Positions 1-54,604 are shown, numbered from the stretch's first letter. The stretch: DNA of 64,000 nucleotides from Sulfuriferula sp. (GCA_041651255.1 JBAZJP010000005.1:24405-88404); one strand, 5' to 3'. Notes: generated by a model from the letters alone, not told the origin. Made by a program: numbers and translations.

Positions 1-495
1 GTGGCCGCTGACAAACACAATTGCGTCCTCTACATCATAGACCTCGGCAATAGCCTGTTCCAGTTCGCGATGTATCGGGCGTTCGCCTGACACTGGGCGG
101 CTGGCAGAAACGGATGTGCCATACTGGTCTATCGCCCGTTTGGCCGCATCGGCTACGCGGGCGTCACCTGATAAACCAAGGTAGTTATAACTGGCATAGT
201 TGATATAGTCACGACCGCCAATCTTGGTTGTCGCACCCGCAATACCCTCGTGCAATTTGAAAAATGGATTGTCTATACCCATGCGCGCCGCACCATCATT
301 GATGATGCGCAGTTGTTGATAGCCCGGATGGAGGTGAAAGCGGTAGTGTTGCTCAGGAATATTGTCAGCCTGGGTTGATTTGGTTAACGGCGTATCTGCC
401 TGTTGCTCGACCTGACGCAGCTTGCGCTCGAGTGCCTGCTGTATCAGTTTATCCTTGATCTGTGCGGTGAGTCCGGTGATCCCTTTGCTTGCCAT
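1..495 (-). CDS. wcbT: WcbT/RkpG-like alpha-oxoamine synthase (8-amino-7-oxononanoate synthase / serine palmitoyltransferase family, PLP class II), truncated by window edge
   Basis: Not in the ORF track. Manual translation from ATG at 495, which overlaps the PKS stop (TGATG), gives MASKGITGLTAQIKDKLIQQALERKL...GRDYINYASYNYLGLSGD...IDQYGTSVSASRPVSGERPIHRELEQAIAEVYDVEDAIVFVSGH, open to base 1. The NYLGL and SASR motifs are typical of the family. Confidence 0.9.
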   Translation of the reverse strand, partial: MASKGITGLTAQIKDKLIQQALERKLRQVEQQADTPLTKSTQADNIPEQHYRFHLHPGYQQLRIINDGAARMGIDNPFFKLHEGIAGATTKIGGRDYINYASYNYLGLSGDARVADAAKRAIDQYGTSVSASRPVSGERPIHRELEQAIAEVYDVEDAIVFVSGH

Positions 496-3400
496 CAGCT
501 TATCATCCGTTTGTTGGCAGCGGTTCTATTGGACTGGACATCGTTCATCAGGTTGATAACAGATTCTGCGGTCATTTCCGTGCCATGTTGTGCTGCAACT
601 TGCTCAACCTGCTGTTGTACCGCACTGGTTTCTGCTTTATCGCTGCCTTTTAATTGTGTAATCAGACGTTCAGCTAATTTGGCTATGGTTGGGCTGGTGC
701 TCAACGCCATCACCGACAGGCGAATGCCAAAGCGTGATTCCAGCGCAACGACCAGCTCCACACCCATCAACGAATCCAGACCCATGTCGTAGATAGAACG
801 GTTGGCATCAATCTTATCGGGCGCAACGCGCAGGATCTCGCCAACTTCCTGTTTGAGCATGGCTATGATGGCGATCTGCAATTCATCATCGGTTAGCTCG
901 GCCAGTAAACGCTGCATATCTGCGCCGTTATCTGCATCTGCAGCGCTATCCTGATCTTGTTGTGCCATCTCGCAGAATTTGGCCGAGTTGGCACTAGGCA
1001 AGAAACGCGCAAGGGCTTTCCAGTCCAGTTCCAGTACACCCAGTCCAGAGCGGTTAGCAAGCAACATGCTTTCCAGCGCATCCAGCGCAACCGCGGAGTT
1101 GAGCGCACCGCCACCCATACGACCTTGCAGTGCATCCTTGATATTTTCATTACGTGCGAGGAAGCCTACGTCGTCAATTGCACCCCAACGTACACAGGTT
1201 GCGGCTAATCCAGCAGCTCTGCGGTTTCGGGCGAGCGCTTCCAGCGTGGCATTGGCGGCGACATAGTTGCCTTGCCCAGGATTGCCAAATAACGTGGTTG
1301 CTGACGAGAACAGGATGAAATAATCCAGTGCTAACTCTTTGGTCAACTGATGTAAGTGGAGTGCACCCAGTACCTTGGGTGCGAGTACGCGCTGGATCTG
1401 TGCGGCATCCATATTGCGTATCAGACCATCCGCTATCACCATTGCCGCGTGGACGATGCCTTTAAGCGGTGGCATGGTACTGGCAATGTGTTGTAACAGA
1501 GTGGTCAGCGCATTGATATCTGTGACGTCACAAGCAGTAGCGTAGACTTGCACACCTTGCTTCTTCAGTTGCGTGATACTGCTCAGTGCTTCGGCCGATT
1601 GAGGACCGCTACGACTAATCAATACCAAATGTCGCGCACCTTTGGCAGCCAGCCATTCTGCGGTTTTCAGGCCAAACCCACTGACTCCGCCGGTGACCAG
1701 ATAGGTTGCGGCAGCGTCGAGCTTAAGCTGTGGCTTGATAGGCTTGGCAGTGCAATGTCGTTGATGTACTGGCTGGTGATAAGTGACGACTATCTTGCCG
1801 ATTTGTTTGGCTTGCTGCATGTAACGGAAAGCATCAACGATGTCATTTGCTTCAAATACGGTATAAGGCAGTGGATGCAGTATGCCCTCAGCAAACAGAT
1901 TCATCACTTCAGCAAACAGCTTACGGGTAAGGTCGGGGCGGACTTGCATGAGCTGATCGGCATCGACGCCAAAATAGCTGATATTGTTGCGGAATGGTCG
2001 CAAACCTATTTTGGTATTTTCGTAGAAATCGCGCTTACCCAATTCGATGAATCGACCAAATGGTTTTAATACGCGGAAATTGCGGTTGATGGCTTCGCCT
2101 GCGAGTGAGTTGAGCACCACATCTACGCCCGCACCATTAGTCTGTGCCAGTATCTCATCAGCAAAACCCAGTGAGCGTGAATTGTAGATATGATCAACGC
2201 CAGACAGTCGCAGGAAGTCACGTTTTTCGTCTGATCCTGCTGTGGCGTAAATTTCTGCACCTATCCATTTTGCGATCTGGATAGCTGCTATCCCCACGCC
2301 ACCAGCCGCACCGTGTATCAGTACTTTTTCGCCAGGCTGTAGCTGAGCGAGCTGGTGCAGCGCGTAGTAAACGGTTAAGAAGGTGCTTGGTATGGTAGCC
2401 GCTGCTGCAAATGAGATGCCCGCCGGGATCAGCGCAATGGCGCTGGACTGGGTAATTACCCGGTTGCTGAAGCTGGACGGGCCAAAGCCAACGACACGGT
2501 CGCCCACAGCGTAACCGCTGGTTTGTGAGCCCACATTGATCACGATACCGGCGAATTCCAGTCCCAGCGTTGGACCCGCAAAACCTTCTTCTATGGCTTC
2601 GTCAGAGAGCATGCCCAGTGCGTACATGACGTCTCTGAAATTCAGACCAGTGGCATGGACTTCGACTTCGATTTCGTGCGCAGCGGGAAGTACACGAGGA
2701 TGTGCTTCCCAGCGTAAATTACGCAGCTGTCCAGGTGTCTGGAAAGCCAGGCGCAAGGTAGGTGCGGTGAGTGGCGCTGCTGTAGCTGCAACTGGGCGTG
2801 GTTCAAGTCGCAGACGTGGCGCGTAACGTGCCCCATGAGCGCTGAGTATTACTTCCGTTTCGTTATCTGCTAGTGTGAGTTCCTTACTCAGTGCGTTGGT
2901 GACAACCTCCAGTGCATCTGGGGCATGCAGATCAATCATGCGCACCTTGTAATTAGACTCCTCATTCATCAGGGTACGGCCAAATCCCCATAGTGCTGCA
3001 TCTGGCAGCGAAGCAGTAGAGGAATCAGTATGTTCATATTCAGATAGCAAGTCTGTGCTCACATTGGCAGTCACTAGCCAGCAAGTGGTACCGATCTGGG
3101 TAGATTCACACGCCTGGATAATGGCTGCAGCACTGGCACAACGGTCAACTTGCTGATTCAACAGTGCTGCCGGTGAGTCATTTTCGGTCAGTGTGTTAAG
3201 CCCGGCTAAGTGAATGATACCGTCGAGCTGTCCCGTGGTATCAAGCAGCAAAGATGCAATGTATGCACTATCCCCGGGCTGGGCGATGCTGACATGGTCG
3301 CCATGAGCTGTCAGTTTTTCCGTCAGTAAGCTGGCTAGTCGTGCTGAATAGCCAGTCTTATCTGCCAGTACCAGCCAGTTATGCGCTAAGGCAGGTGGCG

Positions 3401-6400
3401 TGGCTGCGATTTTTTTAGCAGCAGTTTGCGCTATCAGCAAATACGGGCCAGCATGTGCATCTGGTATTAAATCCAGATGTTCGGCATTGATAAAGTCCAG
3501 TGTTTGCAACTGTTGCTGCCAGAATTGCGCAGAATGTTGTGCAGAATGCCAGGTTGTATCCGTTGTTGTAACTTTGTCTTGGCAACCAAACACAAAATCC
3601 ATCCAGCGTGATGGGTGTTGACCTATCAATAACAGGCTGCCGCCCTCGACGAGTTGCGAATTCGCGTACCTGAGCGCGCGCATGGCTTCCTCAGGTGTGC
3701 TGAAATCAAGTTGCACGATGGCCAGTTGGCAAAATGCAGGTGAGGTAGTGGCAGTACCGATCAGACTAGTATTGAAGCGGGGATAGTGCTCTTGTAATGA
3801 CGCAACCTCTTCCAGTGCTGCTTCAGACGTGCTGGCAAACGTATAATTGCTGCGGTTGAAATCAAGTTGTGCACAAATATCCGTGGCAAACAGTGGCGTA
3901 CCTGCGCTGATTTCCAGCACGCCCAGACGCTGACCCGCAGGCAATAGCTTTAAGCTGTAACTAATCCAGTCGCGTACATTGGTCGTGAGTTGCTGTTTGC
4001 CCAGCTCGCCCAGTGCCAGACGGGTTAATGCCGCAAGTGAGGATGCGTCAGAGGCCAGTTTCGCGGGACTCATGGCGCCAGTGAGTAAGGCTGGCAAGTG
4101 CAATCCTATACGCCCGACGCTGTGAATAATCTGGAAGTAATCAGGGTAATCTGCCACCAGGCTATTCCATATATCTATGGGCAATATGCTGTCAGCCTGG
4201 CTGGCTGGAATTTCCCAGCCATGTTTGTTAGCGGTGATGGCGAGGTCTTGCTCAGCCATCGTCAACAAATGAGTGAAATAGGGCGCGGCTTGCGGTGCGG
4301 ACTTTTGGTATGCTGCCACCGCTTTGGTGGTGAGCTCTCCTGACTTATTCGCCAGTTGTTGCAATGCCTGCACAGTAAAGCCGCTGCATAAGCTGTCGAG
4401 TAGTGGCTCGACTTCAAAGGCATAACGATCAAATATCTGCTGTTGTGCGCATTGTTGTACCACGCCTGTCAGCGCGGTACGTATTTCAGCAAAGCTGACG
4501 CTGGCAACGGGCGTTGTAAGCGGATGAGGTGCAGGTGTCGCGTGAAAATCAAGGAAGCGCAGATGATCTGCAGCGTGTTTGTGTAAGCGCACACTGCGGA
4601 AGCGGGCTTGCTTGATAACGGCAATGGCCATGCCGTTTTTATCAAAAACCGTGAATTCAGCTGTCAGTGAATGTGGTGAGCGGTTTAATAACGTCACTTG
4701 TGCAAAATGAGGCGCAGCACCTGTTCGACGGAAAGCGATACGTCCCATTTTAACGGGAACAAATGCAATACCGTCATACATCGCCAAATCATCTTTCAGC
4801 AGCTGAATAATCAGCTGGAAAGTACAGTCCAATATAGCGGGATGGAGGTGTGTCTGGGCTAAATCAGGTGCAGATGATGTCGGGGTGAAAAATACTGCCA
4901 ATGCAGTTGTGCCATTGACCCAACCATGATCAATACGTTGAAACTCAGCACCATAATCCAGGCCAGCTGCGCGGGTCAGTGCGTTATGGCTGGTATGATC
5001 GAAATCAGGCTGGCGGGCTGGGAGCGTCGGTGCGATCCGTGCCAGTAAAATATCGCCAGGTTCACTAAGTATCCGTGCTACGGCATGAGTCGTCCACGGC
5101 TCTGTGCCGGCCTGATCGCGCCCAGTGATACTGACACTGCCGTCTTGTGCGGCAATGCTCACGCGTACGGTTTTGGCGTGCTCACTGCTTAAGATCAGCG
5201 GTGAACGGATTTCCAGCTCTTCTATTTCAGCTAATTCGGAGGGCTTCCACGCAAGTGCTGCTGCCAGCACCAGTTCTGCAAATCCAGTGCCGGGAAACAC
5301 CGCCGCTTCACCGACTACGTGATCTGCCAAACTAGGTAGAATAAGTGTGTCGAGTTGGTTTTCCCAGGTAAGTTCATGTTGTTGCAGCGCATAACCCAAT
5401 AGCGGATGAACCTTGTGCCGTGTCAACAAGCCCATCGATGCGGCGGACACTGGATGCCAGTGCCGCTCACGTTGCCATGGGTAATTAGGTAAGCTGATGA
5501 ATTTGCCGGGTACAGGGAACAGGCTAGCCCAATCTATGCACGCACCCGCAACGATTGCCGAATTAACTGCGGCCCAGACGAGATCTGCGGCATCGTCCTG
5601 ACGGGTTAACGTGGTAATCACACATCCTTCAATATTGCCATCTTTCAGTGCGTCATTGAGGTAACCACGCATTACTGCATGTGGGCCGACTTCGATAAAA
5701 ATATTTGTTCCTGTGGCCATTATTTGCTTGCTGGCGTGTTCAAACAGCACCGGTTTGCGTATGTTGTGCCACCAGTATTCAGCATCAAGTTCGCGCCCAT
5801 CCAGCAAATCGCCCGTTACCGTTGAGTAAAAAGGTATCGTTGAGGTGGCGGGCTGAATGTTGTTCAGCGTTTGCTTAATGTTGGACTCTATCGCATCCAT
5901 GGCGGGACTGTGGAATGCATAATCCAGCGCCAGACGCTTAAAGGGGATGTGGCGAGCTGATAAAGCCGATTCGAGCTGGGTAAGTTGATCCGCATCACCT
6001 GCGACAGTGATGCCGCGAGAGCTGTTGATGCCAGCTACTGCCAACGTGCTTCCTATGGCTGCTAATAACGTTTGCGCATCAGCAATTCCGCAGCCTACCG
6101 CAGTCATCTGACCCTTGCCCTTGGTTGTGCCTTGGGCATGGCTGCGGTGATAGATAACGGCTACGGCATCAGCTAACGATAATCCGCCGCACGCCCAGGC
6201 CGCCGCCACTTCACCTACGCTGTGACCGGCCACAGCAATAGGTGTAATGCCACGCTGTGCCAGCATGCGGGTAATGCCGACCTGTATTGCGAATAAGGCG
6301 GGTTGTGCAATTTCAGTTAGTTCATAGCGGTCGTCACCGTGTTTGCCAGCTAATTCATCTTCCAGCGAAAAATCCGCATGCAGGCGGAATAGCGCGTCGA

Positions 6401-8081
6401 TTTCACGGATAGTCGTACGGAATATGGCAGACTCTTGCAGTAGTTGTTTACCCATGCCCGCCCACTGCGAACCATTGCCTGAATAGATGAAAGCTGGGCC
6501 AGCAGGTTGGGCTAATGCGCTACCGCTTTGCACTTCATTTTTGTTAGCTTCGTCATTGGCAAACGCAAGTAAAGATTTGGCAATGGCCGCGGGTGTCGTA
6601 CCCGATAAAACAACGCGATGGCTGTGAGCCTCGCGGTTAAAAATCGTGTTGTAACTGATGTCGTAAAGTGCAGTCTTGGACTGTGAATTCAGGAATACAG
6701 CAAATTCACTCGCAGCCTGTTTGAGTCCGGCATTGTCCTTTGCCGAGAGCATGATGGGCAGATCGGTAGTTTTTGATGAGGCGGGTACTATAGTTTTGGG
6801 AGCTTCGTAACTTTCCAGTATGACGTGTGCGTTAGCGCCGCCAAAGCCGAACGAGTTGATACCAACGATAATCTTGCCTGATTTTTTTAATGGGCGATTC
6901 TTAGTGACAACTTTAACATTCAAATCGTCAAAATCAATGTTGGGATTGAGCGTATTCACGCCAATTGTTGCAGGTACCATGCGATGCTGGATGCAATGCA
7001 ATGCCTTGGCTAGACCGGCAATACCAGAAGCGGCTTCCATGTGCCCAAGATTACTTTTAATTGAACCTATCAGTAGCGGATTATTCTTGGCACGCCGCTT
7101 ACCCAATGCTTCGCCTATTGCCCGTGTTTCTATTGGGTCACCGACGGCTGTGCCGGTGCCGTGTGCTTCAAGATAATCAATCGTCGTTGGGTCGATACCG
7201 GCTTTTGCATACGTGTGCGTGAGCAGCTCAGCCTGTATTTGCGCGCTGGGCACGGTCAGGCCGGATTTTCGACCATCAGTGTTGACTGCCGTGCTGGCGA
7301 CTACCGCAAGGATTCGATCGCCGTCAGCAACCGCCTGATCATAATCCTTAAGCAGGAACACCCCGCCGCCCTCAGAGCGTACATAGCCATCACCGGCTGC
7401 GTCAAATACCTGACAGCGCCCGCGCCTGGAAAGCATGGACGCTTTGGAAAACGTAATAAAACCATAGGGATGCAAATGCAGGCTCACGCCACCTGCGAGT
7501 GCCTGTGTGCTTTCGCCTGAAAGTATGGACTGACATGCCTGATGAAACGCCACCATGGACGATGAGCAGGCAGTATCTATTGCCATGCTCGGGCCACGCA
7601 GATCCAGTACATAGGAAATACGGTTGGCAGCGATGCTGCTGGTATTGCCGGTAGCCGTTGTTGAATCGACAGTATTCAGGTCGTCAGCCAGGCGATAAGC
7701 ATAATCGTTGCTGGCGATACCGATATACACGCCACACTGGCTACCGCGTATTGACGATGGTTTCACACCTGCGTTTTCCAGTGCTTCCCAGCTCATTTCC
7801 AGCAGCAGGCGTTGCTGCGGATCCATCAATGCGGCTTCGCGTGGGGAAATTCCAAAAAAACCCGCATCAAACTGTGATACGTCGCCAACCGAACCTGCAG
7901 CAAAAGTATAGCTGGTGCCAGGATGGTTTTTATCCGGGTGACGATAAGTATCCAGCGCCCAGCGCTCTGCATCGACTTCAGTCACCAAATCACGCCCAGC
8001 CAACAAATCATCCCAGTAGTGAGCGCTGTCGGTACTGGGGAAACGAAAGGCCATTCCTGTAATTGCTACTTTTTTTGCCAT
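495..8081 (-). CDS. wcbR: Type I polyketide synthase WcbR/RkpA-like (KS-AT-DH-pseudoMT-ER-KR-ACP, no thioesterase)
   Basis: KS DTACSSS, HGTGT, GSIKSNLGH; AT GHSVG and YAFH; DH HVVGEAAVFPG; degenerate MT LEISAGT; ER IHGAAGGVG; KR TGGVSGFG and GQGNYVAAN; ACP GLDSLM. Capsule-locus context. Confidence 0.92.
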   Translation of the reverse strand: MAKKVAITGMAFRFPSTDSAHYWDDLLAGRDLVTEVDAERWALDTYRHPDKNHPGTSYTFAAGSVGDVSQFDAGFFGISPREAALMDPQQRLLLEMSWEALENAGVKPSSIRGSQCGVYIGIASNDYAYRLADDLNTVDSTTATGNTSSIAANRISYVLDLRGPSMAIDTACSSSMVAFHQACQSILSGESTQALAGGVSLHLHPYGFITFSKASMLSRRGRCQVFDAAGDGYVRSEGGGVFLLKDYDQAVADGDRILAVVASTAVNTDGRKSGLTVPSAQIQAELLTHTYAKAGIDPTTIDYLEAHGTGTAVGDPIETRAIGEALGKRRAKNNPLLIGSIKSNLGHMEAASGIAGLAKALHCIQHRMVPATIGVNTLNPNIDFDDLNVKVVTKNRPLKKSGKIIVGINSFGFGGANAHVILESYEAPKTIVPASSKTTDLPIMLSAKDNAGLKQAASEFAVFLNSQSKTALYDISYNTIFNREAHSHRVVLSGTTPAAIAKSLLAFANDEANKNEVQSGSALAQPAGPAFIYSGNGSQWAGMGKQLLQESAIFRTTIREIDALFRLHADFSLEDELAGKHGDDRYELTEIAQPALFAIQVGITRMLAQRGITPIAVAGHSVGEVAAAWACGGLSLADAVAVIYHRSHAQGTTKGKGQMTAVGCGIADAQTLLAAIGSTLAVAGINSSRGITVAGDADQLTQLESALSARHIPFKRLALDYAFHSPAMDAIESNIKQTLNNIQPATSTIPFYSTVTGDLLDGRELDAEYWWHNIRKPVLFEHASKQIMATGTNIFIEVGPHAVMRGYLNDALKDGNIEGCVITTLTRQDDAADLVWAAVNSAIVAGACIDWASLFPVPGKFISLPNYPWQRERHWHPVSAASMGLLTRHKVHPLLGYALQQHELTWENQLDTLILPSLADHVVGEAAVFPGTGFAELVLAAALAWKPSELAEIEELEIRSPLILSSEHAKTVRVSIAAQDGSVSITGRDQAGTEPWTTHAVARILSEPGDILLARIAPTLPARQPDFDHTSHNALTRAAGLDYGAEFQRIDHGWVNGTTALAVFFTPTSSAPDLAQTHLHPAILDCTFQLIIQLLKDDLAMYDGIAFVPVKMGRIAFRRTGAAPHFAQVTLLNRSPHSLTAEFTVFDKNGMAIAVIKQARFRSVRLHKHAADHLRFLDFHATPAPHPLTTPVASVSFAEIRTALTGVVQQCAQQQIFDRYAFEVEPLLDSLCSGFTVQALQQLANKSGELTTKAVAAYQKSAPQAAPYFTHLLTMAEQDLAITANKHGWEIPASQADSILPIDIWNSLVADYPDYFQIIHSVGRIGLHLPALLTGAMSPAKLASDASSLAALTRLALGELGKQQLTTNVRDWISYSLKLLPAGQRLGVLEISAGTPLFATDICAQLDFNRSNYTFASTSEAALEEVASLQEHYPRFNTSLIGTATTSPAFCQLAIVQLDFSTPEEAMRALRYANSQLVEGGSLLLIGQHPSRWMDFVFGCQDKVTTTDTTWHSAQHSAQFWQQQLQTLDFINAEHLDLIPDAHAGPYLLIAQTAAKKIAATPPALAHNWLVLADKTGYSARLASLLTEKLTAHGDHVSIAQPGDSAYIASLLLDTTGQLDGIIHLAGLNTLTENDSPAALLNQQVDRCASAAAIIQACESTQIGTTCWLVTANVSTDLLSEYEHTDSSTASLPDAALWGFGRTLMNEESNYKVRMIDLHAPDALEVVTNALSKELTLADNETEVILSAHGARYAPRLRLEPRPVAATAAPLTAPTLRLAFQTPGQLRNLRWEAHPRVLPAAHEIEVEVHATGLNFRDVMYALGMLSDEAIEEGFAGPTLGLEFAGIVINVGSQTSGYAVGDRVVGFGPSSFSNRVITQSSAIALIPAGISFAAAATIPSTFLTVYYALHQLAQLQPGEKVLIHGAAGGVGIAAIQIAKWIGAEIYATAGSDEKRDFLRLSGVDHIYNSRSLGFADEILAQTNGAGVDVVLNSLAGEAINRNFRVLKPFGRFIELGKRDFYENTKIGLRPFRNNISYFGVDADQLMQVRPDLTRKLFAEVMNLFAEGILHPLPYTVFEANDIVDAFRYMQQAKQIGKIVVTYHQPVHQRHCTAKPIKPQLKLDAAATYLVTGGVSGFGLKTAEWLAAKGARHLVLISRSGPQSAEALSSITQLKKQGVQVYATACDVTDINALTTLLQHIASTMPPLKGIVHAAMVIADGLIRNMDAAQIQRVLAPKVLGALHLHQLTKELALDYFILFSSATTLFGNPGQGNYVAANATLEALARNRRAAGLAATCVRWGAIDDVGFLARNENIKDALQGRMGGGALNSAVALDALESMLLANRSGLGVLELDWKALARFLPSANSAKFCEMAQQDQDSAADADNGADMQRLLAELTDDELQIAIIAMLKQEVGEILRVAPDKIDANRSIYDMGLDSLMGVELVVALESRFGIRLSVMALSTSPTIAKLAERLITQLKGSDKAETSAVQQQVEQVAAQHGTEMTAESVINLMNDVQSNRTAANKRMIS

Positions 8082-8509
8082 GTTGGTTTTTACTTGGTTG
8101 AGTGTATCCGGATGTTATTCGCGTTATATGTAAGCATAGTTGAAACGTTCCTTAGTATAGCATTTCCGCATACATTTACAGAAGCCTAAGGCGGGTTAAC
8201 TTGGCCTGTGCGCACGCACTGAATAGGCAATAACAGGATATTCGGCCGTTTTCTTAAGTGGTGTACAATTAGTCTGTTCCTCAATTGTATTTCTACCCAA
8301 GCCACCATGATGCAAATTCAGCGTGCCATGACAAATGATGCTATGCCTCATCGGTATTCTTATCTTTTGTACAATCTCTTGCTTAAACTGCGTGCCGATT
8401 TGCATTGGCGCTATTTGCACGCTGTAATTATGGCAAGTCAGAGGCTTGCCTTGTTCAGTTATATAAGTAGTGTTGAAGAAACTACGCATATCGTTAATGG
8501 GGTGGCGCT

Positions 8510-10417: not shown

Positions 10418-11215
10418 TCAAGCGGATGTGAAAGCCCATGAATTTATAGGCAGATTTTTTATTCTCGCTAAAAAATCCACAAATGGTAATCCTAAATTAG
10501 TTTCTAATTCTTGCGCACGTTCGGCAAAATTTCGGTGTTCAGGTTGTTCTCTAAAGGCAAATACGAGGTAATTGCCTGGCTTTCTGACGGGTAGGCAAAG
10601 TATGCGTTGATTAAAGATAGATGACAGGCGACTTAAATAGATTTCGAAGTCTGGATGTTCACTCCATAAATTGACGCACAAGACACCTGATGGTGCTAAT
10701 GCATCGGCGCATTGTTGATAAAACGCCAGGCTCGCTAATATTTCAATCTGAAAAGTAGTATCGAAAGCGTCCAATATAATGCAGTCTACATTTGTTTGTT
10801 GCGGAATATACTCGGCAGCATCTGCTTGCACTATGTTCAAGCGCTGGATGTTTTCTGGCAAGAAAAAATAATGTTGTGCGACATCAATAATCACAGGATT
10901 GATTTCAATCACGGTAGTGACTGTGGCTGGGAAGTGCTGGTATAAAAATTTAACCAGAGAACCACCCCCTAGCCCTGCCACTAAGCAATGTTTGGGGGCG
11001 TCATGGAATAGTAGAAAAGCGAACATGGCTTGGGAATAGGGCAGTGCTAATTCATTGGGCGCAGCCATATTCATCGCTGATTGCACATAGTCATTATCTA
11101 AATGTAAACAGCGTATATGCCCGATATCATTTTGCTCGCTTACCTTCACTAGACCAAATTCAGAATTTGCTTCGTAGATAATTTTGCGGCTGGGAAAAAG
11201 AGATAAGTCTGGCAT
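10418..11215 (-). CDS. Spermidine synthase-like class I SAM-binding protein
   Basis: QSAMN, GLGGGSL SAM motif, VIEINP, IILDAFD. Confidence 0.75.
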   Translation of the reverse strand: MPDLSLFPSRKIIYEANSEFGLVKVSEQNDIGHIRCLHLDNDYVQSAMNMAAPNELALPYSQAMFAFLLFHDAPKHCLVAGLGGGSLVKFLYQHFPATVTTVIEINPVIIDVAQHYFFLPENIQRLNIVQADAAEYIPQQTNVDCIILDAFDTTFQIEILASLAFYQQCADALAPSGVLCVNLWSEHPDFEIYLSRLSSIFNQRILCLPVRKPGNYLVFAFREQPEHRNFAERAQELETNLGLPFVDFLARIKNLPINSWAFTSA

Positions 11216-11359: not shown

Positions 11360-12550
11360 TCAGAATTTAATCGTACCCACATTCACAATCGGATAAACCA
11401 CTGAAACCACAATATTCAGGAATTTCTGCAAGTCAGCACTTGGTGCGTTGGATACATACAGCACATCTTTATTATCAATCGGGAAACTTTGCGCAATAAA
11501 GAAGCTGGCAGGGTCTTTGAGATTTAGCTGATAAACCACAGGGACTTTGCCATCAGGTGTGGTTTTAGGTGTGGTTTTCCAGTTTAGCGCGTTGCTATCT
11601 TCCAAACGGAAAATAAACACTGCGCGTGCATCTGAGCGAGTATCTTGTAACCCCCCGGCTCGCGCCAATGCCTGAGCCAGCGAGATACCTTGTGCTTCAA
11701 AATTGATTTCTTCGTTTTTACCCGTCGCGCCTAACACCGTAAAACTTAATGGTTGGAACAGTGCCGTCACTACATCACCAGGTTGTAAAACAATATTTTG
11801 TTTTGGGTCGCGAATAATGGTATCCAGAGGTAAGGCTTGGACTTTATAACCGCGTGTGACTTGTAACGTCATTTTATTTACTGATTGGCGCACCCCACCA
11901 GCAGCAGCCAGCGCATCGAGCAAACGCTCACCACGGGCAGTGAGCGGCATGCGTGTGCTCGAACCTACTTCACCTACCACGGTGACATTGGCTGTGTTAT
12001 TGCGGATTATGCGTACCAGAACTTGTGGTTGATTTGCCTTGCTTTTTAGTCGTTGCGCAATTTCAGCTTCAATTTGTTGTGGGGTTTTATTTGCAGATGC
12101 AATCTGTCCCGCAAAGGGGATGTTAATTGTGCCCTGGCTGCTCACCATTTGCTCAGGGAAAGTTGTTACTCGCGTCGTTGCAGGTCCCATGCGCGGGTCT
12201 ATGGTTGTGCCACCGAAGAGTAATGCAGGTGGCGCCTCCCAAATAGACACCTCGATCACATCGCCTGCACCAATCACATAACCTTGTTTTGCTGAACTAG
12301 AAAATGCTTCTGAAAATAGCGCCTTTTTTTGATCAGTGAGCAATTTTCGGGCAACTGTGTCATCTATATCAACGACTTGTATACCCTCAATGCGCTGACT
12401 GTCGCCGCTTTCTAAAACTTGTTGGCGGCTAGGGCCTGACGAAGCCAACCAGTCAGGATAAGTAGCACAGCCGCTTAGGGCAGAGCTGATGAGCAGTGAG
12501 GTGAATAATGTTCGAGCGTAGGGGAAGCTAAATGCGGGAGTCGGTTTCAA
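11360..12550 (-). CDS. wcbC: Outer-membrane polysaccharide export lipoprotein (WcbC/Wza/BexD family)
   Basis: Lipobox LSGC, YVIGAGDVIEVSIWEAPP, IPFAGQI, SLBB repeats (LLDALAAAGG, LAQALARAGGL), D-LYVSNAP C-terminus. TTG start. Confidence 0.9.
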   Translation of the reverse strand: MKPTPAFSFPYARTLFTSLLISSALSGCATYPDWLASSGPSRQQVLESGDSQRIEGIQVVDIDDTVARKLLTDQKKALFSEAFSSSAKQGYVIGAGDVIEVSIWEAPPALLFGGTTIDPRMGPATTRVTTFPEQMVSSQGTINIPFAGQIASANKTPQQIEAEIAQRLKSKANQPQVLVRIIRNNTANVTVVGEVGSSTRMPLTARGERLLDALAAAGGVRQSVNKMTLQVTRGYKVQALPLDTIIRDPKQNIVLQPGDVVTALFQPLSFTVLGATGKNEEINFEAQGISLAQALARAGGLQDTRSDARAVFIFRLEDSNALNWKTTPKTTPDGKVPVVYQLNLKDPASFFIAQSFPIDNKDVLYVSNAPSADLQKFLNIVVSVVYPIVNVGTIKF

Positions 12551-27476: not shown

Positions 27477-28735
27477 TATAAATTAGGAATTTTTTGGGGG
27501 GCTACACCCACTGATGGGGATGGATAACATAATGCTTGTGTTAATGCCAAGCAAGATACTTGCCATGTGAGCTCGGTTGGTTGTTGTATGTATTTATTTT
27601 CGCTTTTGAATCGCTTTAGCCATTGAGGGAGGAGAGTGGTTAGGTCATGATCGGATGCCGAGTGGAAAAAACTAACGTTTTTACTGGCAATTTCACGGAA
27701 CACAGATAGGTCACGAGCCAGGACAGGCTTGCGGAAATAAGCGGCTTCTATCAATGGTAAGCCGTAACCTTCGCCTTTGGAGGTGATGAGCACGCCCAGG
27801 CATTGCCGGTAGAGGGCGCTCAGCAGATTATCCTCCACATCATTTAACCAAATCAACCGTTTGCCTGTTTCTGCATGGGTTCGCAGGCGGTGGCTGAGTT
27901 CTTCTATGTCCCATCCTTGCTTGCCAACGATGATTAGGCGGGTTGAATCGCCTGTTGCCCAGAGTGATTCGAACGCATCAAGTGCATCATCATAGCCTTT
28001 GCGTGGCTCGATGGTGCCGACCATAAGAATAAAGTCGTGCTCTGCTAAGTGTCGCGGTAATGGTGTAATGGACGCGTTGTTATCCAGCTCTGCACCTAAA
28101 GGAATTGTGGCGCAGGGTATTTCAGTTGTGGATAGCTGATAGTGCTTTTGCATCCAGTCGTGAAAATCGGCCTGTACAGTGCGTGAGATCGCAATGGTGT
28201 TATCGGCGAGTAGGGCAATGGCACGCAACCAGCGATGGAAATTCCGGCTGGCTCTGGGGGTGAACCATTCCGGATGCAATACGGGCAAAAGGTCATAGAT
28301 CACAATGCTGATACGTGTACCTTGCAGCTTCCAGTTCCATAGCTGTTCAAGGTGATGTGGAATCAGGTGCGCAGAAAGATCCAGCCCTAAAAAAATATCA
28401 CCTGCATTAACCTGAATCGGTAAGGTCGGGGCTGTCGCTGGTTGTTGTAAAAAATCAGTGGGCAGATAGCGGTAAGGCTGGGTACGCGAGGCCGCAACAG
28501 GACAGATGCGGTAACCCGCTGGCGGAGCTGCGAGTAATGCCTTGTACAGGTTGCGTACTACACGTTGGATACCGGTTTTTGCGTCGATTTTTGCAATGGC
28601 AGAAACGTCGATTAATAATTGTTTTTCTGCAGTGTCATGCGAGGTGTCGTGGGTTACGTGTGTTAGTCTTTTGCGCCAGAATGACACTGGTAAATACGTG
28701 AGTGCAATATGGTGGAGTAATCGTAGTGCGCGCAT
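27476..28735 (-). CDS. GT4 glycosyltransferase (WbpX/WbdA C-domain-like)
   Basis: LLIDVS..DAKTGIQRVV, YDLLP, VGTIEPRKG, EGYGLPLIEA. Confidence 0.88.
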   Translation of the reverse strand: MRALRLLHHIALTYLPVSFWRKRLTHVTHDTSHDTAEKQLLIDVSAIAKIDAKTGIQRVVRNLYKALLAAPPAGYRICPVAASRTQPYRYLPTDFLQQPATAPTLPIQVNAGDIFLGLDLSAHLIPHHLEQLWNWKLQGTRISIVIYDLLPVLHPEWFTPRASRNFHRWLRAIALLADNTIAISRTVQADFHDWMQKHYQLSTTEIPCATIPLGAELDNNASITPLPRHLAEHDFILMVGTIEPRKGYDDALDAFESLWATGDSTRLIIVGKQGWDIEELSHRLRTHAETGKRLIWLNDVEDNLLSALYRQCLGVLITSKGEGYGLPLIEAAYFRKPVLARDLSVFREIASKNVSFFHSASDHDLTTLLPQWLKRFKSENKYIQQPTELTWQVSCLALTQALCYPSPSVGVAPQKIPNL

Positions 28736-29397
28736 TATCCAATCTCAGCGGCGTGCTCGTTGTAATACACGAATGCTTCATCAAGATCATCAAACGCAGT
28801 CATTTTTCCTTTAACTAAGACTGCTGCGCGCTGGCAGTGTTGGCGGATGTAGTTTGGGTCGTGGGATACGATGATCATGGCACGATCGTTGCGTTTTTCG
28901 AATAGCTCAACACGGCATTTTTCGTGGAAACGATGATCGCCCACGGCAATGATTTCATCGATTAAAAAGCAATCAAATTCCACCACCATGGAGATAGCGA
29001 ACGCCAGTCGTGCTCGCATCCCTGATGAGTACGTTTTAACGGGTTCTCTAAGATATTTTCCTAGTTCAGAGAACTCTTGTACGAAAGGGATCTTGTCTTC
29101 GGTCGAGGTGTCGTAAATGCGGCAAATGAAGCGTAAATTATCCAGACCAGTCAGGCTGCCTTGAAATGCACCACCAAACGCCAACGGCCAGGATACACTC
29201 ATTCCTCGGGTGATACTGCCGCTAGTTGGGCGCTCAGCCCCGCTGATGAGGCGGATGAGCGTGGATTTGCCCGAGCCATTGCGCCCGAGTATACCAACTT
29301 TCTCACCTGGGGCTATTTGCAGGTTGATATTATCCAGTACAGTGCTGACACCGCTGCGAGTATGGTAGCGTTTGACGAGGTTGCTAATTTGTATCAT
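28735..29397 (-). CDS. wzt: Capsule ABC transporter ATPase KpsT/Wzt, short form without C-terminal carbohydrate-binding domain
   Basis: GRNGSGKST Walker A, YSSGM signature, FLIDE Walker B, VSH. Preferred start ATG 29397 (MIQISNLV), in ATGA overlap with the wzm stop; the ORF track starts at 29457. Confidence 0.93.
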
Positions 29398-30185
29398 TCG
29401 GGTATGACCGTTCTGGATATGATACGAACTTGCGAAAGCCCCAGCAAGGTAAGGCATAAATTGATAATCGCCATGTAACTCATGTCGTAATGCGCGTGGA
29501 CCATAGACCCGAAATAGCCTTCGCGCAGTATCTCGACACCATGCACCATAGGCAACAATAGGACGAATTTTTGCCCTGTGGTGGGTAGCCAGTCAACCAT
29601 GAATGCGGCACCAGATAGTGGAAATAAGAGATATGAGGCAGGGTGCCAGAGTTTCTCAATAATTTCGCTGCGCTCACTTAAAGCGCCTATCCACAATGCA
29701 AGTGCCGAGCCAAACCAGGCTAGCATGAACCAGCCAAACATGATTTTGAGTATATCTTCGGGTGGTTTAATCCAGCCTATCGAGGTGAAGACTATCCCTA
29801 ACATAATAAATGAAGCGGTAGTGCCAGCAATTTCAAGGATTAGTCGAGAAGCAAAAATGTCGATCACTTTGACATGACGGTGATACATCAAGGCCAGGTT
29901 AGGTTCAATGGCCTTGCTGCAGCGGTTAGGCATGTTGCGCCATAGTAAAACAGATGAGTAACCGGTGAGCGCAAATGCGGCAATAGGGATGTTGGTAAAG
30001 TGATGTCCGCCAGCCATAGTCCACAGCACGGTGACACCCAAGGTAAAGAGCATGGGTTCAACGAATAGCCATAAAAAACCAATATTATGACGACCATAGC
30101 GGGTGATGACTTCGCGCATCAATAGCGCGCCAATGACGCGGAATTGTATTTGTAAGGATCGGCGCAAGCTGGGTGTTGTATTCAT
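29394..30185 (-). CDS. wzm: Capsule ABC transporter permease KpsM/Wzm
   Basis: [26 protein letters not shown], multiple TM segments, P-x-VHG-x-E-x2-R. Confidence 0.93.
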
Positions 30186-42253: not shown

Positions 42254-43405
42254 ATGAAAATCTTAATAGATGTTACTCGTTTGGTGAGTCGTTTTATGGA
42301 CGGGCGTTTGCCAACTGGGGTAGATAGAGTCGGGCTGGCGTATGTGCGGCATTATGGTGTGCGAGCGCAGGCAGTGGTGCGTTGGGCGGGGCGGCTGTGG
42401 GTGTTGCCACGTGTGCAATCAGCGGCGTTGTTTGCCTGGTTGGCGAATCCTGTTGACTCACGTGGTGCGGTGTGGATTATTACGCGTGGCATTATGGCGG
42501 GTGGCTGGCTACAGGATGTGGCAGGGAGTATTTTGCTGAATACCGGGCACACGGGTTTGCATGAGAGTGCGTATGTGACCATGCTGTGTAAATTGGGTGT
42601 GCACCCTGTGTTTTTGGTGCATGATCTGATCCCGATTACTCACCCGGAATATTGCCGCGCGGGTGAGGATGAGAAGCATCGGCGGCGTATGCAGCATGTG
42701 CTGACCTTGGGGTGCGGTGTGGTGGCGATTTCGCAAGCTACATTGAATGATTTGAGTCAGTTTGCCGCGCAGTTACAGTTACCTATGCCGCCTGCAGTGG
42801 TCGGGTTGTTAGCACCTGGTCCTGCTCATTGTGTGGCAAGTACGCGCCCAGTGGCCGAACCATATTTTGTAGTATTGAGCACCATAGAACCACGTAAAAA
42901 TCATGTGCTGTTATTACAGGTGTGGCGGCGTCTGGTTGAGCAATATGGCGAACACGCGCCGCGCTTGGTGGTGATAGGGCAGCGTGGTTGGGAGTGTGAG
43001 AATGTGGTGGATTTGCTGGAGCGCTGTGCTGTGCTTAAGGGGGTTGTGATTGAGCTGGCAGATTGCTCGGATGCAGTATTGGTGAATTATTTGCATCATG
43101 CTCAGGCCCTGTTGTTTCCTTCTTTTGTTGAGGGTTATGGTATGCCGCTGGTTGAGGCGTTGGCGTTGGGTCTGCCGGTGATTGCCAGTGATTTGGAAGT
43201 GTTTCATGAGATTGCTGCGGATATTCCTGAATATATTGATCCGCTGGATGGGCTGCGCTGGGCGGAACGGGTGATGGATTACGCACAGCCGAATAGCGAA
43301 TCACGCGCAGCGCAGTTGCAGCGTATATCGCATTTCAAGACGCCAGCTTGGGCGGATCATTTTGCCAAGGTTGATGCTCTGTTAGAGGTTGTCGGAAATG
43401 CCTAA
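42254..43405 (+). CDS. wcbB: GT4 glycosyltransferase, WcbB-like
   Basis: IDVTRL..PTGVDRV, HDLIP-x-THPEY, TIEPRKNH, EGYGMPLVEA. Directly upstream of the kpsC-like gene, as in wcb loci. Confidence 0.8.
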   Translation: MKILIDVTRLVSRFMDGRLPTGVDRVGLAYVRHYGVRAQAVVRWAGRLWVLPRVQSAALFAWLANPVDSRGAVWIITRGIMAGGWLQDVAGSILLNTGHTGLHESAYVTMLCKLGVHPVFLVHDLIPITHPEYCRAGEDEKHRRRMQHVLTLGCGVVAISQATLNDLSQFAAQLQLPMPPAVVGLLAPGPAHCVASTRPVAEPYFVVLSTIEPRKNHVLLLQVWRRLVEQYGEHAPRLVVIGQRGWECENVVDLLERCAVLKGVVIELADCSDAVLVNYLHHAQALLFPSFVEGYGMPLVEALALGLPVIASDLEVFHEIAADIPEYIDPLDGLRWAERVMDYAQPNSESRAAQLQRISHFKTPAWADHFAKVDALLEVVGNA

Positions 43406-44459
43406 GCAAAAAGATTTAACTATGCAGCATATTATTAATGCTGAAGTGCTGGGAATTTATCAGTTTCCCTACTGGAAACATCCTGTGGTGAAGCAGTGTT
43501 TCCCTGCATTTCGGGTGGTATTTATTGAATCCATAGATAAATTGCCGGTGGGTGCGATCCTGGTGTTGTGGGGGATGCGTCCTGTACCAGAGGGCGTGAC
43601 TAAAGATGTGCAGGTTTGGCGAATGGAAGATGGCTTTCTGCGCTCCGTAGGTTTGGGTGCGGATTTGATACGCCCGATGTCGTGGATAGTCGATCAGCAA
43701 GGTATTTACTATGATGCGACGCGGGTATCGGATTTGGAACAGCTATTGGCGCAGACACAGTTTGATGAGGCTCTGCTAGCCAGAGCTGCTGATTTGCGCG
43801 CACGCGTAGTAGCGACTGGGCTGACAAAATATAATGTAGGTGCAGGAAAATGGCAGCGACTTGCGAATGCGGCACGAGTGATCCTGGTGCCCGGGCAGGT
43901 GGAGAGTGACGCATCGTTGGCGTTTGGCGCGCCTGGTGAGCGCACCAATATAGGATTGTTGCAGGCAGTACGGTCTGCGCATCCCGATGCGTATGTGGTG
44001 TATAAGCCACACCCCGATGTTTATGCGCGATTGCGTGCTGAGGGTCAGAATGAGCAGAGTGCCTATCGCTGGTGCGATGAGGTGGTGACCGATGTGGCTA
44101 TGGGGGATTTGCTCACCATGGTTGATGAAGTGCATGTGATTACGTCTTTGGCAGGCTTTGAGGCGCTGTTGCGTGGTAAACCCGTGACTTGCTACGGCCA
44201 GCCATTCTATGCTGGCTGGGGTTTGACGCAGGATGTGATGCCGATAGCTCGGCGTAGTCGACGTTTGAGTTTAGACGAGTTAGTGGCGGCAGTGTTGATT
44301 TTGTATCCGCTGTATTTGAGCCGTGATGGTAAGCATTTGATTACGCCAGAACAGGCATTAAATGAGCTATCTGTTTGGCTGGCACATACCGGTGGTCGTG
44401 TAACCATATGGCGTAAGTTTATCAGGATGTTTCTGCGGCAGATTATTGGCGTGCGTTAA
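43398..44459 (+). CDS. kpsC: KpsC/WcbA-family beta-Kdo transferase, single-domain (about half length)
   Basis: EDGFLRSVGLGA, GIYYDAT, PGQVESDAS, YKPHPDV, SLAGFEALLRG, PFYAGWGLT-x-D. Start ATG 43398 with AGAGG RBS. Confidence 0.85.
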   Translation: MPKQKDLTMQHIINAEVLGIYQFPYWKHPVVKQCFPAFRVVFIESIDKLPVGAILVLWGMRPVPEGVTKDVQVWRMEDGFLRSVGLGADLIRPMSWIVDQQGIYYDATRVSDLEQLLAQTQFDEALLARAADLRARVVATGLTKYNVGAGKWQRLANAARVILVPGQVESDASLAFGAPGERTNIGLLQAVRSAHPDAYVVYKPHPDVYARLRAEGQNEQSAYRWCDEVVTDVAMGDLLTMVDEVHVITSLAGFEALLRGKPVTCYGQPFYAGWGLTQDVMPIARRSRRLSLDELVAAVLILYPLYLSRDGKHLITPEQALNELSVWLAHTGGRVTIWRKFIRMFLRQIIGVR

Positions 44460-52377: not shown

Positions 52378-53391
52378 ATGCAAGTCACCACGAATAATTT
52401 AGTGCTGGTCACTGGAGCGACAGGATTTATCGGTAGCCGATTAGCGCAGCGTCTGCTCGATGATGGCTATGCGGTGAGAGTGTTGGTGCGCGATCCGCAG
52501 AGATTGTCTGCATTGCTGCGTGAACAATGTGAAGTCGTCGTTGGCGATGTGCTTGACGAGGCAGTAATGGCGAGTGCGGTCAGGCAAGTGCAACTGATAT
52601 TCCATTGTGCGGCAAACGTGAAAACATGGGATACGTATGCGGCTTATTTCGCGGTGAATGTTCAGGGTGTGCAGAATCTGATGCAGGCGATAGCGCAGGT
52701 AAATCCGGATCTGTCGCGTTTGGTACACATCTCTACGGTTGACGTGTATGGCTTCCCCGATGCGCCGTGTGACGAGACTTGTGTTGCCACGGGTGGTGAG
52801 TTCGATTATGGCAAAACCAAGCTGATGGGTGAGAATCTGGTGCGCTCACTGGGCGATGCGGCAAATATTTCTTACACGATTATCCGGCCCTGCAATGTCA
52901 TCGGGCCGGGCAGTCAGTTCATAGAACGCATAGGTGCAGAGTTAAAGTCTGGGGTTATGTTGACCATAGCCGGCGGACACACTCATGCCGGGCTGGTTTA
53001 TATTGATAATCTGGTTGATGATGTGGTGTGGGCTGCAACTGCGCCTAATGCACACCGGGAATGCTACAACGTGCGTGATGATAACGAAGTCGATTGGGCT
53101 GAATTTTTGCGGGTATTTCGTCAGTGTATCGGGGGCAAGGGCTTAGTGATCAATTTGCCCTTTGCGGTTGCGGATAAATTGGCATGGGCTTTTGCAATAG
53201 TGCATAAAACATTGTTACCGCGCCATGAGCCACTGTTACACCGCTTGCTGGTGCGGTTTTTTGGTAAAACCTGTGGGCATAGCCCGGCAAAAATTCGCAC
53301 GCATCGAGCCGGTGCATCTGCCGTGCAGAGGATAGATTTTGACGAGGCAATGCGGCGGTCGTGTCAGTGGTTTAAGGGTGAAAATGACTAA
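52378..53391 (+). CDS. NAD-dependent epimerase/dehydratase (extended SDR, 3-beta-HSD-like)
   Basis: VTGATGFIG, FHCAA, HISTVDVYG, YGKTK (YxxxK), IRP-x-NV-x-GPG. Confidence 0.88.
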   Translation: MQVTTNNLVLVTGATGFIGSRLAQRLLDDGYAVRVLVRDPQRLSALLREQCEVVVGDVLDEAVMASAVRQVQLIFHCAANVKTWDTYAAYFAVNVQGVQNLMQAIAQVNPDLSRLVHISTVDVYGFPDAPCDETCVATGGEFDYGKTKLMGENLVRSLGDAANISYTIIRPCNVIGPGSQFIERIGAELKSGVMLTIAGGHTHAGLVYIDNLVDDVVWAATAPNAHRECYNVRDDNEVDWAEFLRVFRQCIGGKGLVINLPFAVADKLAWAFAIVHKTLLPRHEPLLHRLLVRFFGKTCGHSPAKIRTHRAGASAVQRIDFDEAMRRSCQWFKGEND

Positions 53392-54604
53392 TTCGCATGT
53401 GGTGTTTTTACAAGGCTTGCCATCACCGTTTTTCAGTCGTGTCGCACGTGGATTAGCTGAATCGGGTTGTCGGGTAACAGGGATTAACTTGTGTGTAGGA
53501 GACCAGTTATTCTGGCGTGGTCCGAATACGCTGAATTACCGCGGTCGCCTGGCTGATTGGCCGCAGTTTATCGCTGATTTCTACGATAAAAATGGCGTGA
53601 CTGATATTGTTCTGTTAGGCGAGCAACGCAGTTACCACCAGCATGCAATCAAGCTGGCACAAGCACGTGGCATACGCGTGACGGTGACCGATTTTGGCTA
53701 CTTGCGCCCTGACTGGATGGCGTTTGAACGGGATGGTATGGGCGGCGATTCGCATTTCCCCAAAGATCCGCAAGCCATATTGGCGCTGGCTGCCCAGGCG
53801 CCCAAGGCAGCGCTCACACAGCGCTATACAGATAGCTTCTGGACTATGGCATGGGGCGACATGCTTTATCATTTTGCCAATTTCTTTTATTTCTGGTTAT
53901 TTCCTTATTATCGTCGTCCCTACAAACGTAACCACCCGTTAGTGCATTATTTCTCTATCGGCAAGCGATTGCTGTTTGCTAAACGTGGGCATCAACATGC
54001 GACCCGCAGATTAGCCGAATTAAAAGCTGATGGTGCGCGTTATTTCATGTTCCCGTTGCAGTTGGAAAACGATTTTCAAATTGTGTCCTATTCCCCATTT
54101 GACCGTCTGGAAGATGCGATATGGCTGGTGTTACAGTCCTTTGCCAAGCATGCCAGCGCGGAGACTCGTTTGCTGGTCAAAGTGCATCCACTGGATCCCG
54201 GCTTGAAGAATTGGAAAAAAATGATTTGCCGCTGGACAAGTGAACTGGGCATAGCTGAACGTATTGATTATTTTGATGGCGGCAATTTAGATGACATTAT
54301 CAGCGCGTCACAGGGCGTGGTGACAGTTAACAGTACCGTGGGTATTCGCGCGCTACAACTGGGTAGCCCGGTCATTACGCTAGGCGATGCGATTTATGAT
54401 GTAGATGGGCTGGCTTTTCAGGACGGTATTGATCGCTTCTGGATTGAGGCTAAAAAACCAGATCCGGTATTGGTTGACGCATTTATCGATGCGGTCTGTC
54501 ATAGCATACAAATACGTGGTACTTTTTATAGTGAGCCTGGCTTGAGTGCGGCGGTTGATGCTGCCGTGATCCGGCTATCCACGGGGACGAGCGGCTTAGC
54601 CTGA
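53384..54604 (+). CDS. kpsS: KpsS/WcbO/RkpJ capsule priming beta-Kdo transferase
   Basis: FLQG-x-PSPFF, GYLRPDW, PLQLENDFQ, K-x-HP-x-D, TVNSTVG. Preferred start ATG 53384, overlapping the SDR stop. Confidence 0.88.
   Translation: MTNSHVVFLQGLPSPFFSRVARGLAESGCRVTGINLCVGDQLFWRGPNTLNYRGRLADWPQFIADFYDKNGVTDIVLLGEQRSYHQHAIKLAQARGIRVTVTDFGYLRPDWMAFERDGMGGDSHFPKDPQAILALAAQAPKAALTQRYTDSFWTMAWGDMLYHFANFFYFWLFPYYRRPYKRNHPLVHYFSIGKRLLFAKRGHQHATRRLAELKADGARYFMFPLQLENDFQIVSYSPFDRLEDAIWLVLQSFAKHASAETRLLVKVHPLDPGLKNWKKMICRWTSELGIAERIDYFDGGNLDDIISASQGVVTVNSTVGIRALQLGSPVITLGDAIYDVDGLAFQDGIDRFWIEAKKPDPVLVDAFIDAVCHSIQIRGTFYSEPGLSAAVDAAVIRLSTGTSGLA

Follow-up and report, generated by a model that had tools for sequence, protein, structure and literature searches.

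A thioesterase-less polyketide synthase whose gene overlaps that of a serine palmitoyltransferase-like oxoamine synthase in Sulfuriferula: a probable member of the RkpA/RkpG, WcbR/WcbT and SgaA/SgaB family

Pairs of genes encoding an iterative polyketide synthase (PKS) and an alpha-oxoamine synthase (AONS), an enzyme dependent on pyridoxal phosphate (PLP), have been known genetically since the 1990s, from the rkp-1 and wcb loci, and chemically since 2025, from SgaAB. We analysed such a pair at the edge of a 64,000-nucleotide stretch of Sulfuriferula sp. DNA (GCA_041651255.1 JBAZJP010000005.1:24405-88404, or G000:C5:24405-88404 in our numbering of this 2.9-Mb genome, 99.84% complete). The whole stretch is called the window, and positions given without prefix refer to it. 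No new principle emerges from the pair itself; what is new is a conserved triad, in which a gene for an E2-like acyltransferase follows the PKS and AONS genes, and a set of helices at the ends of the two proteins that is found family-wide.

In Pseudomonas fluorescens MYb115, PfSgaA (an iterative PKS) and PfSgaB are needed for the production of C24-C28 sphinganines and phosphoglycerol sphingolipids; within the family, a very long sphingoid base built from L-serine is known as product for PfSgaAB only. PfSgaB, when purified, is a dimer with serine palmitoyltransferase (SPT) activity and a strong preference for L-serine, while PfSgaC, a short-chain dehydrogenase/reductase (SDR), was proposed as the ketoreductase (PMC12134224). 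The supplement of that study lists 6101 homologous clusters, in genera that include Burkholderia, Sinorhizobium, Nitrosomonas, Comamonas, Sulfuriferula, Collimonas, Deefgea and Desulfobulbus. Docking, thioesterases, capsules and wcbR go unmentioned by Peters et al. 2025, where the fumonisin and sphingofungin clusters appear solely for their KDSR homologues (PMC12134224). In Sinorhizobium meliloti and S. fredii, the rkp-1 genes (rkpA, rkpG, rkpH, rkpI and rkpJ) have a proposed role in the synthesis of a lipid carrier or anchor (PMC3557214; PMC7902896). For capsule I of Burkholderia pseudomallei, an earlier note on the present stretch had stated that an LpxC-like wcbS lies between wcbR and wcbT. 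This is borne out by the annotation of BPSL2786-2792 (PMC4275268), which matches the order found at a Burkholderia-type locus of a 7.1-Mb genome (L073), namely sulfatase-PKS-LpxC-like-AONS-GNAT. The intervening gene of L073 is of the LpxC family (PF03331, E = 6e-66), unrelated to the E2-like profile, and the idea that WcbS might be the E2-like protein was rejected.

The PKS gene of Sulfuriferula (495..8081, minus strand; identified by open reading frame (ORF), translation and Pfam) encodes a protein of 2528 residues, an iterative, fully reducing type I PKS of the RkpA/WcbR/SgaA type. Its domains are a ketosynthase (KS), an acyltransferase (AT), a dehydratase (DH), a pseudo-C-methyltransferase (pseudoMT), an enoylreductase (ER), a ketoreductase (KR) and an acyl carrier protein (ACP), in that order, as read from Pfam matches and, for the pseudoMT, from a sequence alignment to a protein of solved structure. 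All on the minus strand, the KS covers residues 3-375 (6957..8075; PF00109 and PF02801), the AT 531-831 (5589..6491; PF00698), the DH 892-1165 (4587..5408; PF21089 and PF14765), the ER about 1777-2100 (1782..2753; PF08240, PF00107 and PF13602), the KR 2125-2303 (1173..1709; PF08659) and the ACP 2398-2479 (645..890; PF00550, matching residues 2409-2473). The motifs DTACSSS, HGTGT, GAAGGVG, GGVSGFG, YVAAN and GLDSLMG (2434-2440, with the ACP serine) are present, and the catalytic motifs of KS, ER, KR and ACP are thus intact. In an AlphaFold2 (AF2) model of residues 2395-2528, the ACP is a confident four-helix fold (predicted local distance difference test, pLDDT, 89-97). It is followed by a tail of 49 residues (2480-2528; 498..644, minus strand; AF2 and alignment) that contains QHG, with H2499, and ends in RMIS. 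Two helices are modelled in this tail, at residues 2484-2499 and 2505-2527, with a low confidence (pLDDT about 50-58). A Pfam scan of the PKS at E <= 0.01 found no thioesterase. The enzyme thus ends as the earlier note had described it, at an ACP and a tail predicted to be helical, without thioesterase.

Two further remarks of that note concerned the AT and the methyltransferase region. The AT motif YAFH (residues 721-724; 5910-5921, minus strand; motif search) had been taken as intermediate between malonyl and methylmalonyl fingerprints. This mixed specificity was rejected: LDYAFHS is found in all 20 scorable relatives, the Burkholderia type included (one further relative gave no match), and two malonyl-type motifs, GHSVGE (residues 619-624 here) and TE[IV]AQPALFA, are present in 21 of the 21 family PKSs searched. 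A related motif, IAFH, has been interpreted as malonyl-specific (PMC3908369), and the bases reported as family products have even chains of C24-C28 (PMC12134224). To judge from this invariance, the accompanying motifs, the products and the reading of IAFH, YAFH is a signature of the family and no local oddity. The remark on the methyltransferase was confirmed. The 600 or so residues between DH and ER have no Pfam match, to a methyltransferase family or any other; the structure of the CurJ C-methyltransferase (5thy) nevertheless aligns by phmmer (E = 1.9e-10) to residues about 1223-1502 (3576..4415, minus strand), and its S-adenosylmethionine (SAM) motif LEIGAGTGG is replaced by LEISAGTPL in the PKS. 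LEISAGT, at residues 1389-1395 (3897-3917, minus strand), is a degenerate SAM motif I, and the region is accordingly a pseudoMT. In those relatives where the motif search detected it, the SAM motif varies between loci.

The AONS gene follows directly. At the TGATG junction (493..497, minus strand), which reads AGC TGA TGG, the A at position 495 is common to the TGA of the PKS and the ATG of the AONS, and the overlap of 1 nucleotide noted earlier is therefore correct. The window holds the 5' part of the gene only, residues 1-165 (1..495, minus strand); the full gene (G000:C5:23556-24899) encodes an SPT-like AONS of 447 residues, of the RkpG/WcbT/SgaB type. It is a fold-type I PLP enzyme (PF00155), 95% identical to a protein of Sulfuriferula nivalis, and the nearest named proteins are from Sulfuriferula. 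The catalytic lysine, which the earlier note had proposed to seek in the remainder of the gene, was found there: K297, in TLSKS, is the residue forming the Schiff base with PLP, and the motifs SGHATN and DEAHS are present as well. The closest solved relatives are two bacterial SPTs, 3a2b and 8guh (E = 2e-64), with KBL, ALAS and BioF behind. Matches to solved SPT and AONS structures begin at query residues 71-98. Outside the coverage of every such match lies the N-terminal extension, also described previously and confirmed here, with AQIKDKLIQQALERKLRQVEQQ at residues 11-32. AF2 predicts for it, with low confidence (pLDDT 36-52), a family-specific amphipathic helix at residues 10-32 (400..468, minus strand), and behind it a disordered linker that extends to about residue 47.

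The pair is most probably a member of the family RkpA/RkpG, WcbR/WcbT and SgaA/SgaB. It displays the features of this family, that is, a single-module, thioesterase-less reducing PKS and, directly downstream, an SPT-like AONS with its Schiff-base lysine; moreover, close relatives of the module lie in genera that appear in the list of SgaAB homologues (Burkholderia, Sinorhizobium, Sulfuriferula, Comamonas, Collimonas, Deefgea and Desulfobulbus). Synteny was examined in a sample of 401 genomes of the same order: a PKS C-terminus stood upstream of the AONS in 20 of the 20 genomes having an AONS of this type. Like SgaA/SgaB of MYb115, the present pair combines an iterative, monomodular type I PKS with an SPT-like AONS behind it. 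It differs in that no SgaC-type KDSR gene is found beside it and no clear orthologue in the genome, that an extra gene for an E2/CAT-fold acyltransferase stands behind the AONS, and that the pair ends a Kps-type capsule cluster. With rkp-1 it has in common the PKS followed by an AONS-type acyltransferase and the K-antigen or Kps context, whereas the RkpH-type SDR and the RkpI-type sulfatase-family genes are missing here, although Sulfuriferula plumbiphila has both; conversely, rkp-1 as described in the literature consulted has no E2-like gene. The PKS and AONS are likewise homologous to those of wcbR-wcbS-wcbT (accompanied by wcbP, wcbQ and wcbO), and the Burkholderia-type locus shares YAFH, GHSVGE, the AONS N-helix and a QH-type motif in the PKS tail, the AONS being 57% identical to that of L067 and L073. 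In Burkholderia, however, the LpxC-like gene separates PKS and AONS and a GNAT gene comes after, whereas here the PKS and AONS genes overlap, with the gene for an unrelated E2/CAT-fold acyltransferase behind them. The module is thus a variant with an E2-like acyltransferase and without SDR and sulfatase partners. A more remote parallel is offered by the fungal fumonisin, sphingofungin and myriocin clusters, which combine a thioesterase-less reducing PKS and a PLP-dependent oxoamine synthase in one cluster. These pairs, with a highly reducing PKS, are eukaryotic and non-orthologous, their products are toxins or inhibitors, and the likeness is one of logic.

Conservation of the two terminal elements was judged on 35 aligned PKS-AONS relatives. 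The N-helix of the AONS has the consensus GLTAQxKDKLIQQALERRLR, with K14, L17, I18 and L22 conserved at 90% or more, and the linker behind it is variable. In the PKS tail, a His is near-invariant (H2499 here, in the motif QH[GA]), and closer relatives keep a C-terminal R-[MI]-I-x even where the codons differ, a conservation that therefore does not reflect a constraint on the ribosome-binding site solely. The N-helix, the QH[GA] tail and the tight gene junction recur across several phyla, and in 36 of 41 family loci the gap between the PKS and AONS genes is between -11 and +5 nucleotides. The Burkholderia-type locus, with its PKS and AONS genes apart, keeps both elements too. Their net charges are opposite, +2 for the N-helix and -2 for the tail.

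These observations lead us to the following proposal. The PKS would iterate with malonyl-CoA and full reduction so that an acyl chain, saturated and very long, grows on its own ACP. The SPT-like PLP enzyme, as a dimer, would take the acyl-S-ACP and condense it with L-serine, the amino acid suggested by analogy with PfSgaB, so that CO2 would be lost and a base of the 3-keto-sphinganine type released. Direct transfer may be aided by a contact between the two dimeric enzymes through the conserved tail of the PKS and N-helix of the AONS. The E2/CAT-fold acyltransferase would then most likely N-acylate the amine to give a ceramide-like lipid, which would most likely serve the Kps-type capsule as primer or anchor for KpsS and KpsC. 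We consider it probable that the Sulfuriferula pair, as a member of this family, works by this mechanism as a whole, and very probable that the chain passes directly from ACP to AONS. Release by PLP-dependent decarboxylative condensation, which the earlier note had put forward, finds support in the homology with a characterised system: the biochemistry of PfSgaB and PfSgaAB (PMC12134224), the PKS-AONS adjacency in 20 of 20 genomes and the PLP lysine all speak for it. The transfer of a C24-C28 chain from a thioesterase-less iterative PKS to a separate PLP enzyme is a step that the literature searched does not address.

Several points weigh against this proposal. Membership of the family is based on shared genera, on architecture and on the link to RkpA and WcbR, not on alignment to PfSgaA and PfSgaB themselves, and PfSgaB was assayed on acyl-CoA surrogates (PMC12134224). 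The terminal helices are modelled at low confidence, distant members lose the C-terminal R-[MI]-I-x, and no Pfam family of docking domains or PKS dimerisation elements matches the PKS or the first 165 residues of the AONS at E <= 0.01. The link to the capsule is one of synteny only. Finally, an RkpI/WcbQ-type sulfatase and a clear RkpH/SgaC ketoreductase are missing from the genome; the pathway may therefore take other steps further down and end in another lipid.

The first question is the docking. It is a reasonable hypothesis because both end elements are conserved and the junction gaps are tight. In docking of the DEBS type, C-terminal helices bind an N-terminal coiled coil. The arrangement predicted here is similar, in that the donor carries helices behind its ACP and the acceptor, a dimer, has a short helix near its N-terminus; it differs in that the acceptor is a stand-alone PLP enzyme and not a KS, and that there is no Pfam docking match. 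A prediction of the 1:1 complex between the full AONS and the ACP-tail fragment gave scores of 0.30 and 0.19, for a mark of 0.32 and in a run without controls, which argues neither for nor against binding. The conservation, the tight junctions and the opposite charges make a docking pair plausible, and suit a membrane-binding or dimer-stabilising helix just as well. We therefore regard tail and N-helix as a docking pair only tentatively, with somewhat less than an even chance. The strongest competing explanation is that the N-helix is an inner-membrane anchor, or a dimer stabiliser, for the exit of the hydrophobic product, and the tail a flexible linker or dimerisation element, while an ordinary contact surface between ACP and enzyme, together with co-translation, suffices for transfer. 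An amphipathic helix of net charge +2, set off from the core by a disordered linker, would fit this, as would the length of the family products, which are C24-C28 lipids, and the activity of His-tagged PfSgaB on acyl-CoA without its PKS (PMC12134224); the tail, in addition, is weakly conserved beyond QH[GA], and the failure of docking-domain families to match is what this explanation expects. However, the near-invariant His and, in closer relatives, the R-[MI]-I-x end speak for some specific role of the tail, and both terminal elements co-persist in 35 of 35 aligned pairs, even with an LpxC-like gene in between. This leaves the explanation possible, and in our view rather unlikely. Whichever role they play, the family-wide N-helix and tail are precise targets for truncation.

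The second question is the destination of the lipid. A Kps-type capsule context is present in the window, with the PKS operon at the end of the cluster. It comprises a KpsS-like Capsule_synth protein, a capsule-priming enzyme and putative user of the lipid (53339..54604, plus strand; PF05159, 249 bits), a single-domain KpsC-like Capsule_synth protein (43389..44459, plus strand; PF05159, 134 bits), a Wza/KpsD-type outer-membrane polysaccharide export protein (OPX; 11360..12550, minus strand; PF02563 and PF22461), and the ABC-2 permease and ATPase of a capsule exporter (28735..30185, minus strand; PF01061 and PF00005). In other genomes, the usual neighbour of the triad is a convergent block of sulfatase, SDR, two Capsule_synth, glycosyltransferase, OPX and ABC exporter genes. 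The earlier note had expected an SDR and a sulfatase-like gene to the left of the window. This did not prove to be the case: the operon contains there no SDR, sulfatase-like gene, thioesterase or acyl-CoA ligase, and the remainder of the AONS gene, the E2-like gene and a convergent gene for a DbpA helicase are found instead. Nor did a search for homologs of rkpH and rkpI in the adjacent DNA and in the genome recover them. The sulfatase-family protein of S. plumbiphila, used as query for an RkpI-type sulfatase, matches nothing in the genome, where the sole PF00884 match is weak (37 bits) and on another contig; the SDR of the same species, used as query for an RkpH-type enzyme, gives weak paralogues only, at 33% identity or less, elsewhere in the genome. 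An extended SDR (Epimerase/3Beta_HSD/NAD_binding_4) encoded directly upstream of the KpsS-like gene (52378..53391, plus strand) is a candidate to take the place of the RkpH/SgaC-type ketoreductase, which is missing.

A role of the lipid as capsule anchor appears somewhat more probable than not, on the strength of this synteny. The alternative is that free or phospho-sphingolipids are made as membrane or secreted lipids, as in P. fluorescens MYb115, without any capsule role, the position of the operon being incidental. It draws on the fact that Peters et al. describe free sphinganines and phosphoglycerol sphingolipids and leave capsules unmentioned (PMC12134224), that the operon has its own upstream region and a GC content of about 52%, against about 42% for the glycan genes, and that the sulfatase-family gene accompanying KpsS and KpsC elsewhere is missing from the genome. 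Yet the pair stands beside Capsule_synth, OPX and ABC exporter genes in S. plumbiphila, Comamonas, Collimonas, Desulfobulbus, Deefgea and Methylobacter, and the capsule is lost or reduced in rkpA and wcbR mutants (PMC3735121; PMC3557214), so that we hold this alternative to be improbable. GC content gives no sign that the PKS operon was acquired horizontally, and the idea was rejected: at about 50-53% (positions 1-8000), the operon is on a par with the core genes that lie left of it (48-53%, in L003), and it is the glycan genes (positions 8001-60000) that are low, at 41-43%.

The third gene of the operon encodes an E2/CAT-fold acyltransferase of 281 residues (G000:C5:22708-23553, or L003:14709-15554, minus strand, left of the window; PF00198) and begins two bases past the AONS stop. 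Since the convergent dbpA gene ends 7 nucleotides from the end of the E2-like gene, the operon consists of three genes; a scan for a terminator at the operon end found none. The protein resembles E2 subunits of 2-oxoacid dehydrogenases in their catalytic domain (PF00198, E = 1.6e-16; PDB profile match, E = 1e-9), and its DHxxxDG motif is intact, with H251, D255 and G256 invariant in 14 relatives. Lipoyl and subunit-binding domains are absent, and the protein is therefore not a subunit of a dehydrogenase complex. A search of a plasmid collection with this protein returned solely haloarchaeal and Bacillus E2 subunits, at 23-31% identity. At least 24 loci, from several phyla, have the arrangement PKS-AONS-E2-like; among the 401 sampled genomes of the taxonomic order, it was seen at E <= 1e-10 in 3 only. 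Besides S. plumbiphila and Comamonas endophytica, the triad is present in Undibacterium, Collimonas, Deefgea, Chitinilyticum, Desulfobulbus, a Syntrophus metagenome-assembled genome (MAG), Methylobacter and many beta-proteobacterial MAGs. In C. endophytica, the assemblies differ, one having a single PKS ORF of 2533 residues and the other three called genes (1595, 743 and 209 residues); this discrepancy (L007:1053-8652 versus L006:1051-8652) corresponds to frameshifts or assembly errors. The sister species has an AONS with 95% identity to the present one; its match to the E2-like gene (G268:C1:1464890-1465720, locus L051) contains one TAG and could be a pseudogene, or a match overrunning a stop codon.

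The slot behind the AONS is occupied by different genes in different loci. It holds a GNAT gene, unrelated to the E2-like profile, in the Burkholderia-type locus (L073:11600-12445, G036), and a formyltransferase-like gene in G312 (L063:1-456). E2-like, GNAT and formyltransferase-like genes are non-homologous, and all are usually amine-modifying. E2-like genes are also associated with oxoamine synthases outside the family. In Alphaproteobacteria, the E2-like gene lies within an operon made of an ABC ATPase, a MacB-type permease, the E2-like gene and DUF3108, and at seven loci this operon stands beside a different AONS-like gene (32-35% identity) with no PKS, three of them keeping an SDR. The example of the MAG locus L029:6062-12605 is joined by L028, L033, L037, L042 and L043, and the SDR is found beyond the AONS-like gene in L029, L033 and L042. 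From gene content, this looks like a cluster for the synthesis and export of an aminolipid. The repeated link to oxoamine synthases, together with the replacement by GNAT and formyltransferase genes in the same slot, would point to an E2-like enzyme acting on the amine product. Among the reactions possible, N-acylation seems the likeliest, with a chance that we put near, and if anything a little under, one in two.

E2 catalytic domains exchange thioesters between lipoamide and CoA, and the DHxxxDG motif is kept in the E2-like protein. One might thus suppose that the chain is not released by the AONS at all, and that the E2-like enzyme or an unlinked thioesterase frees an acyl-CoA or free acid, on which the AONS then acts as a classical SPT; PfSgaB does accept acyl-CoA (PMC12134224), but this is very improbable, since the E2-like gene was detected (E <= 1e-10) in just 3 of the 20 sampled pair-bearing genomes, so that the family works without it, since it is found with an AONS-like gene where there is no PKS, which links it to the amine product, and since the operon has neither a thioesterase nor an acyl-CoA ligase.

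Coming back to direct release by the AONS, the occupation of the slot behind it by unrelated amine-modifying enzymes, and that of the slot between the two genes by an LpxC-like deacylase in Burkholderia, suggest on comparative grounds that the amine of the lipid is modified. Such a modification bears on which lipid primes these capsules, that of B. pseudomallei included. Pushed to its limit, the argument would make the conserved triad a self-contained ceramide line, in which a docking pair channels acyl-ACP into the SPT, the E2/CAT-fold protein acts as a non-GNAT ceramide synthase and the product primes the Kps capsule in place of lyso-phosphatidylglycerol. We consider this complete version unlikely. 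If it were true, docking between a PKS and a PLP enzyme that stands alone would be seen here for the first time, and bacterial ceramide synthases would gain a new, non-GNAT type in the E2/CAT-fold protein.

Some minor observations concern the surroundings. In the E2-like family, one protein (P0104) is a fusion of FtsX and an E2-like domain. Upstream of the PKS, a gap of 430 nucleotides separates its start from a divergent WbqC-like gene and may contain the promoter of the operon; an ORF of 97 residues without Pfam match in this gap (8196-8489, minus strand) may be spurious. Further into the glycan region, a gene of methyltransferase fold, resembling spermine/spermidine synthases (10418-11215, minus strand), lies between the OPX gene and a gene for a DegT-type aminotransferase.

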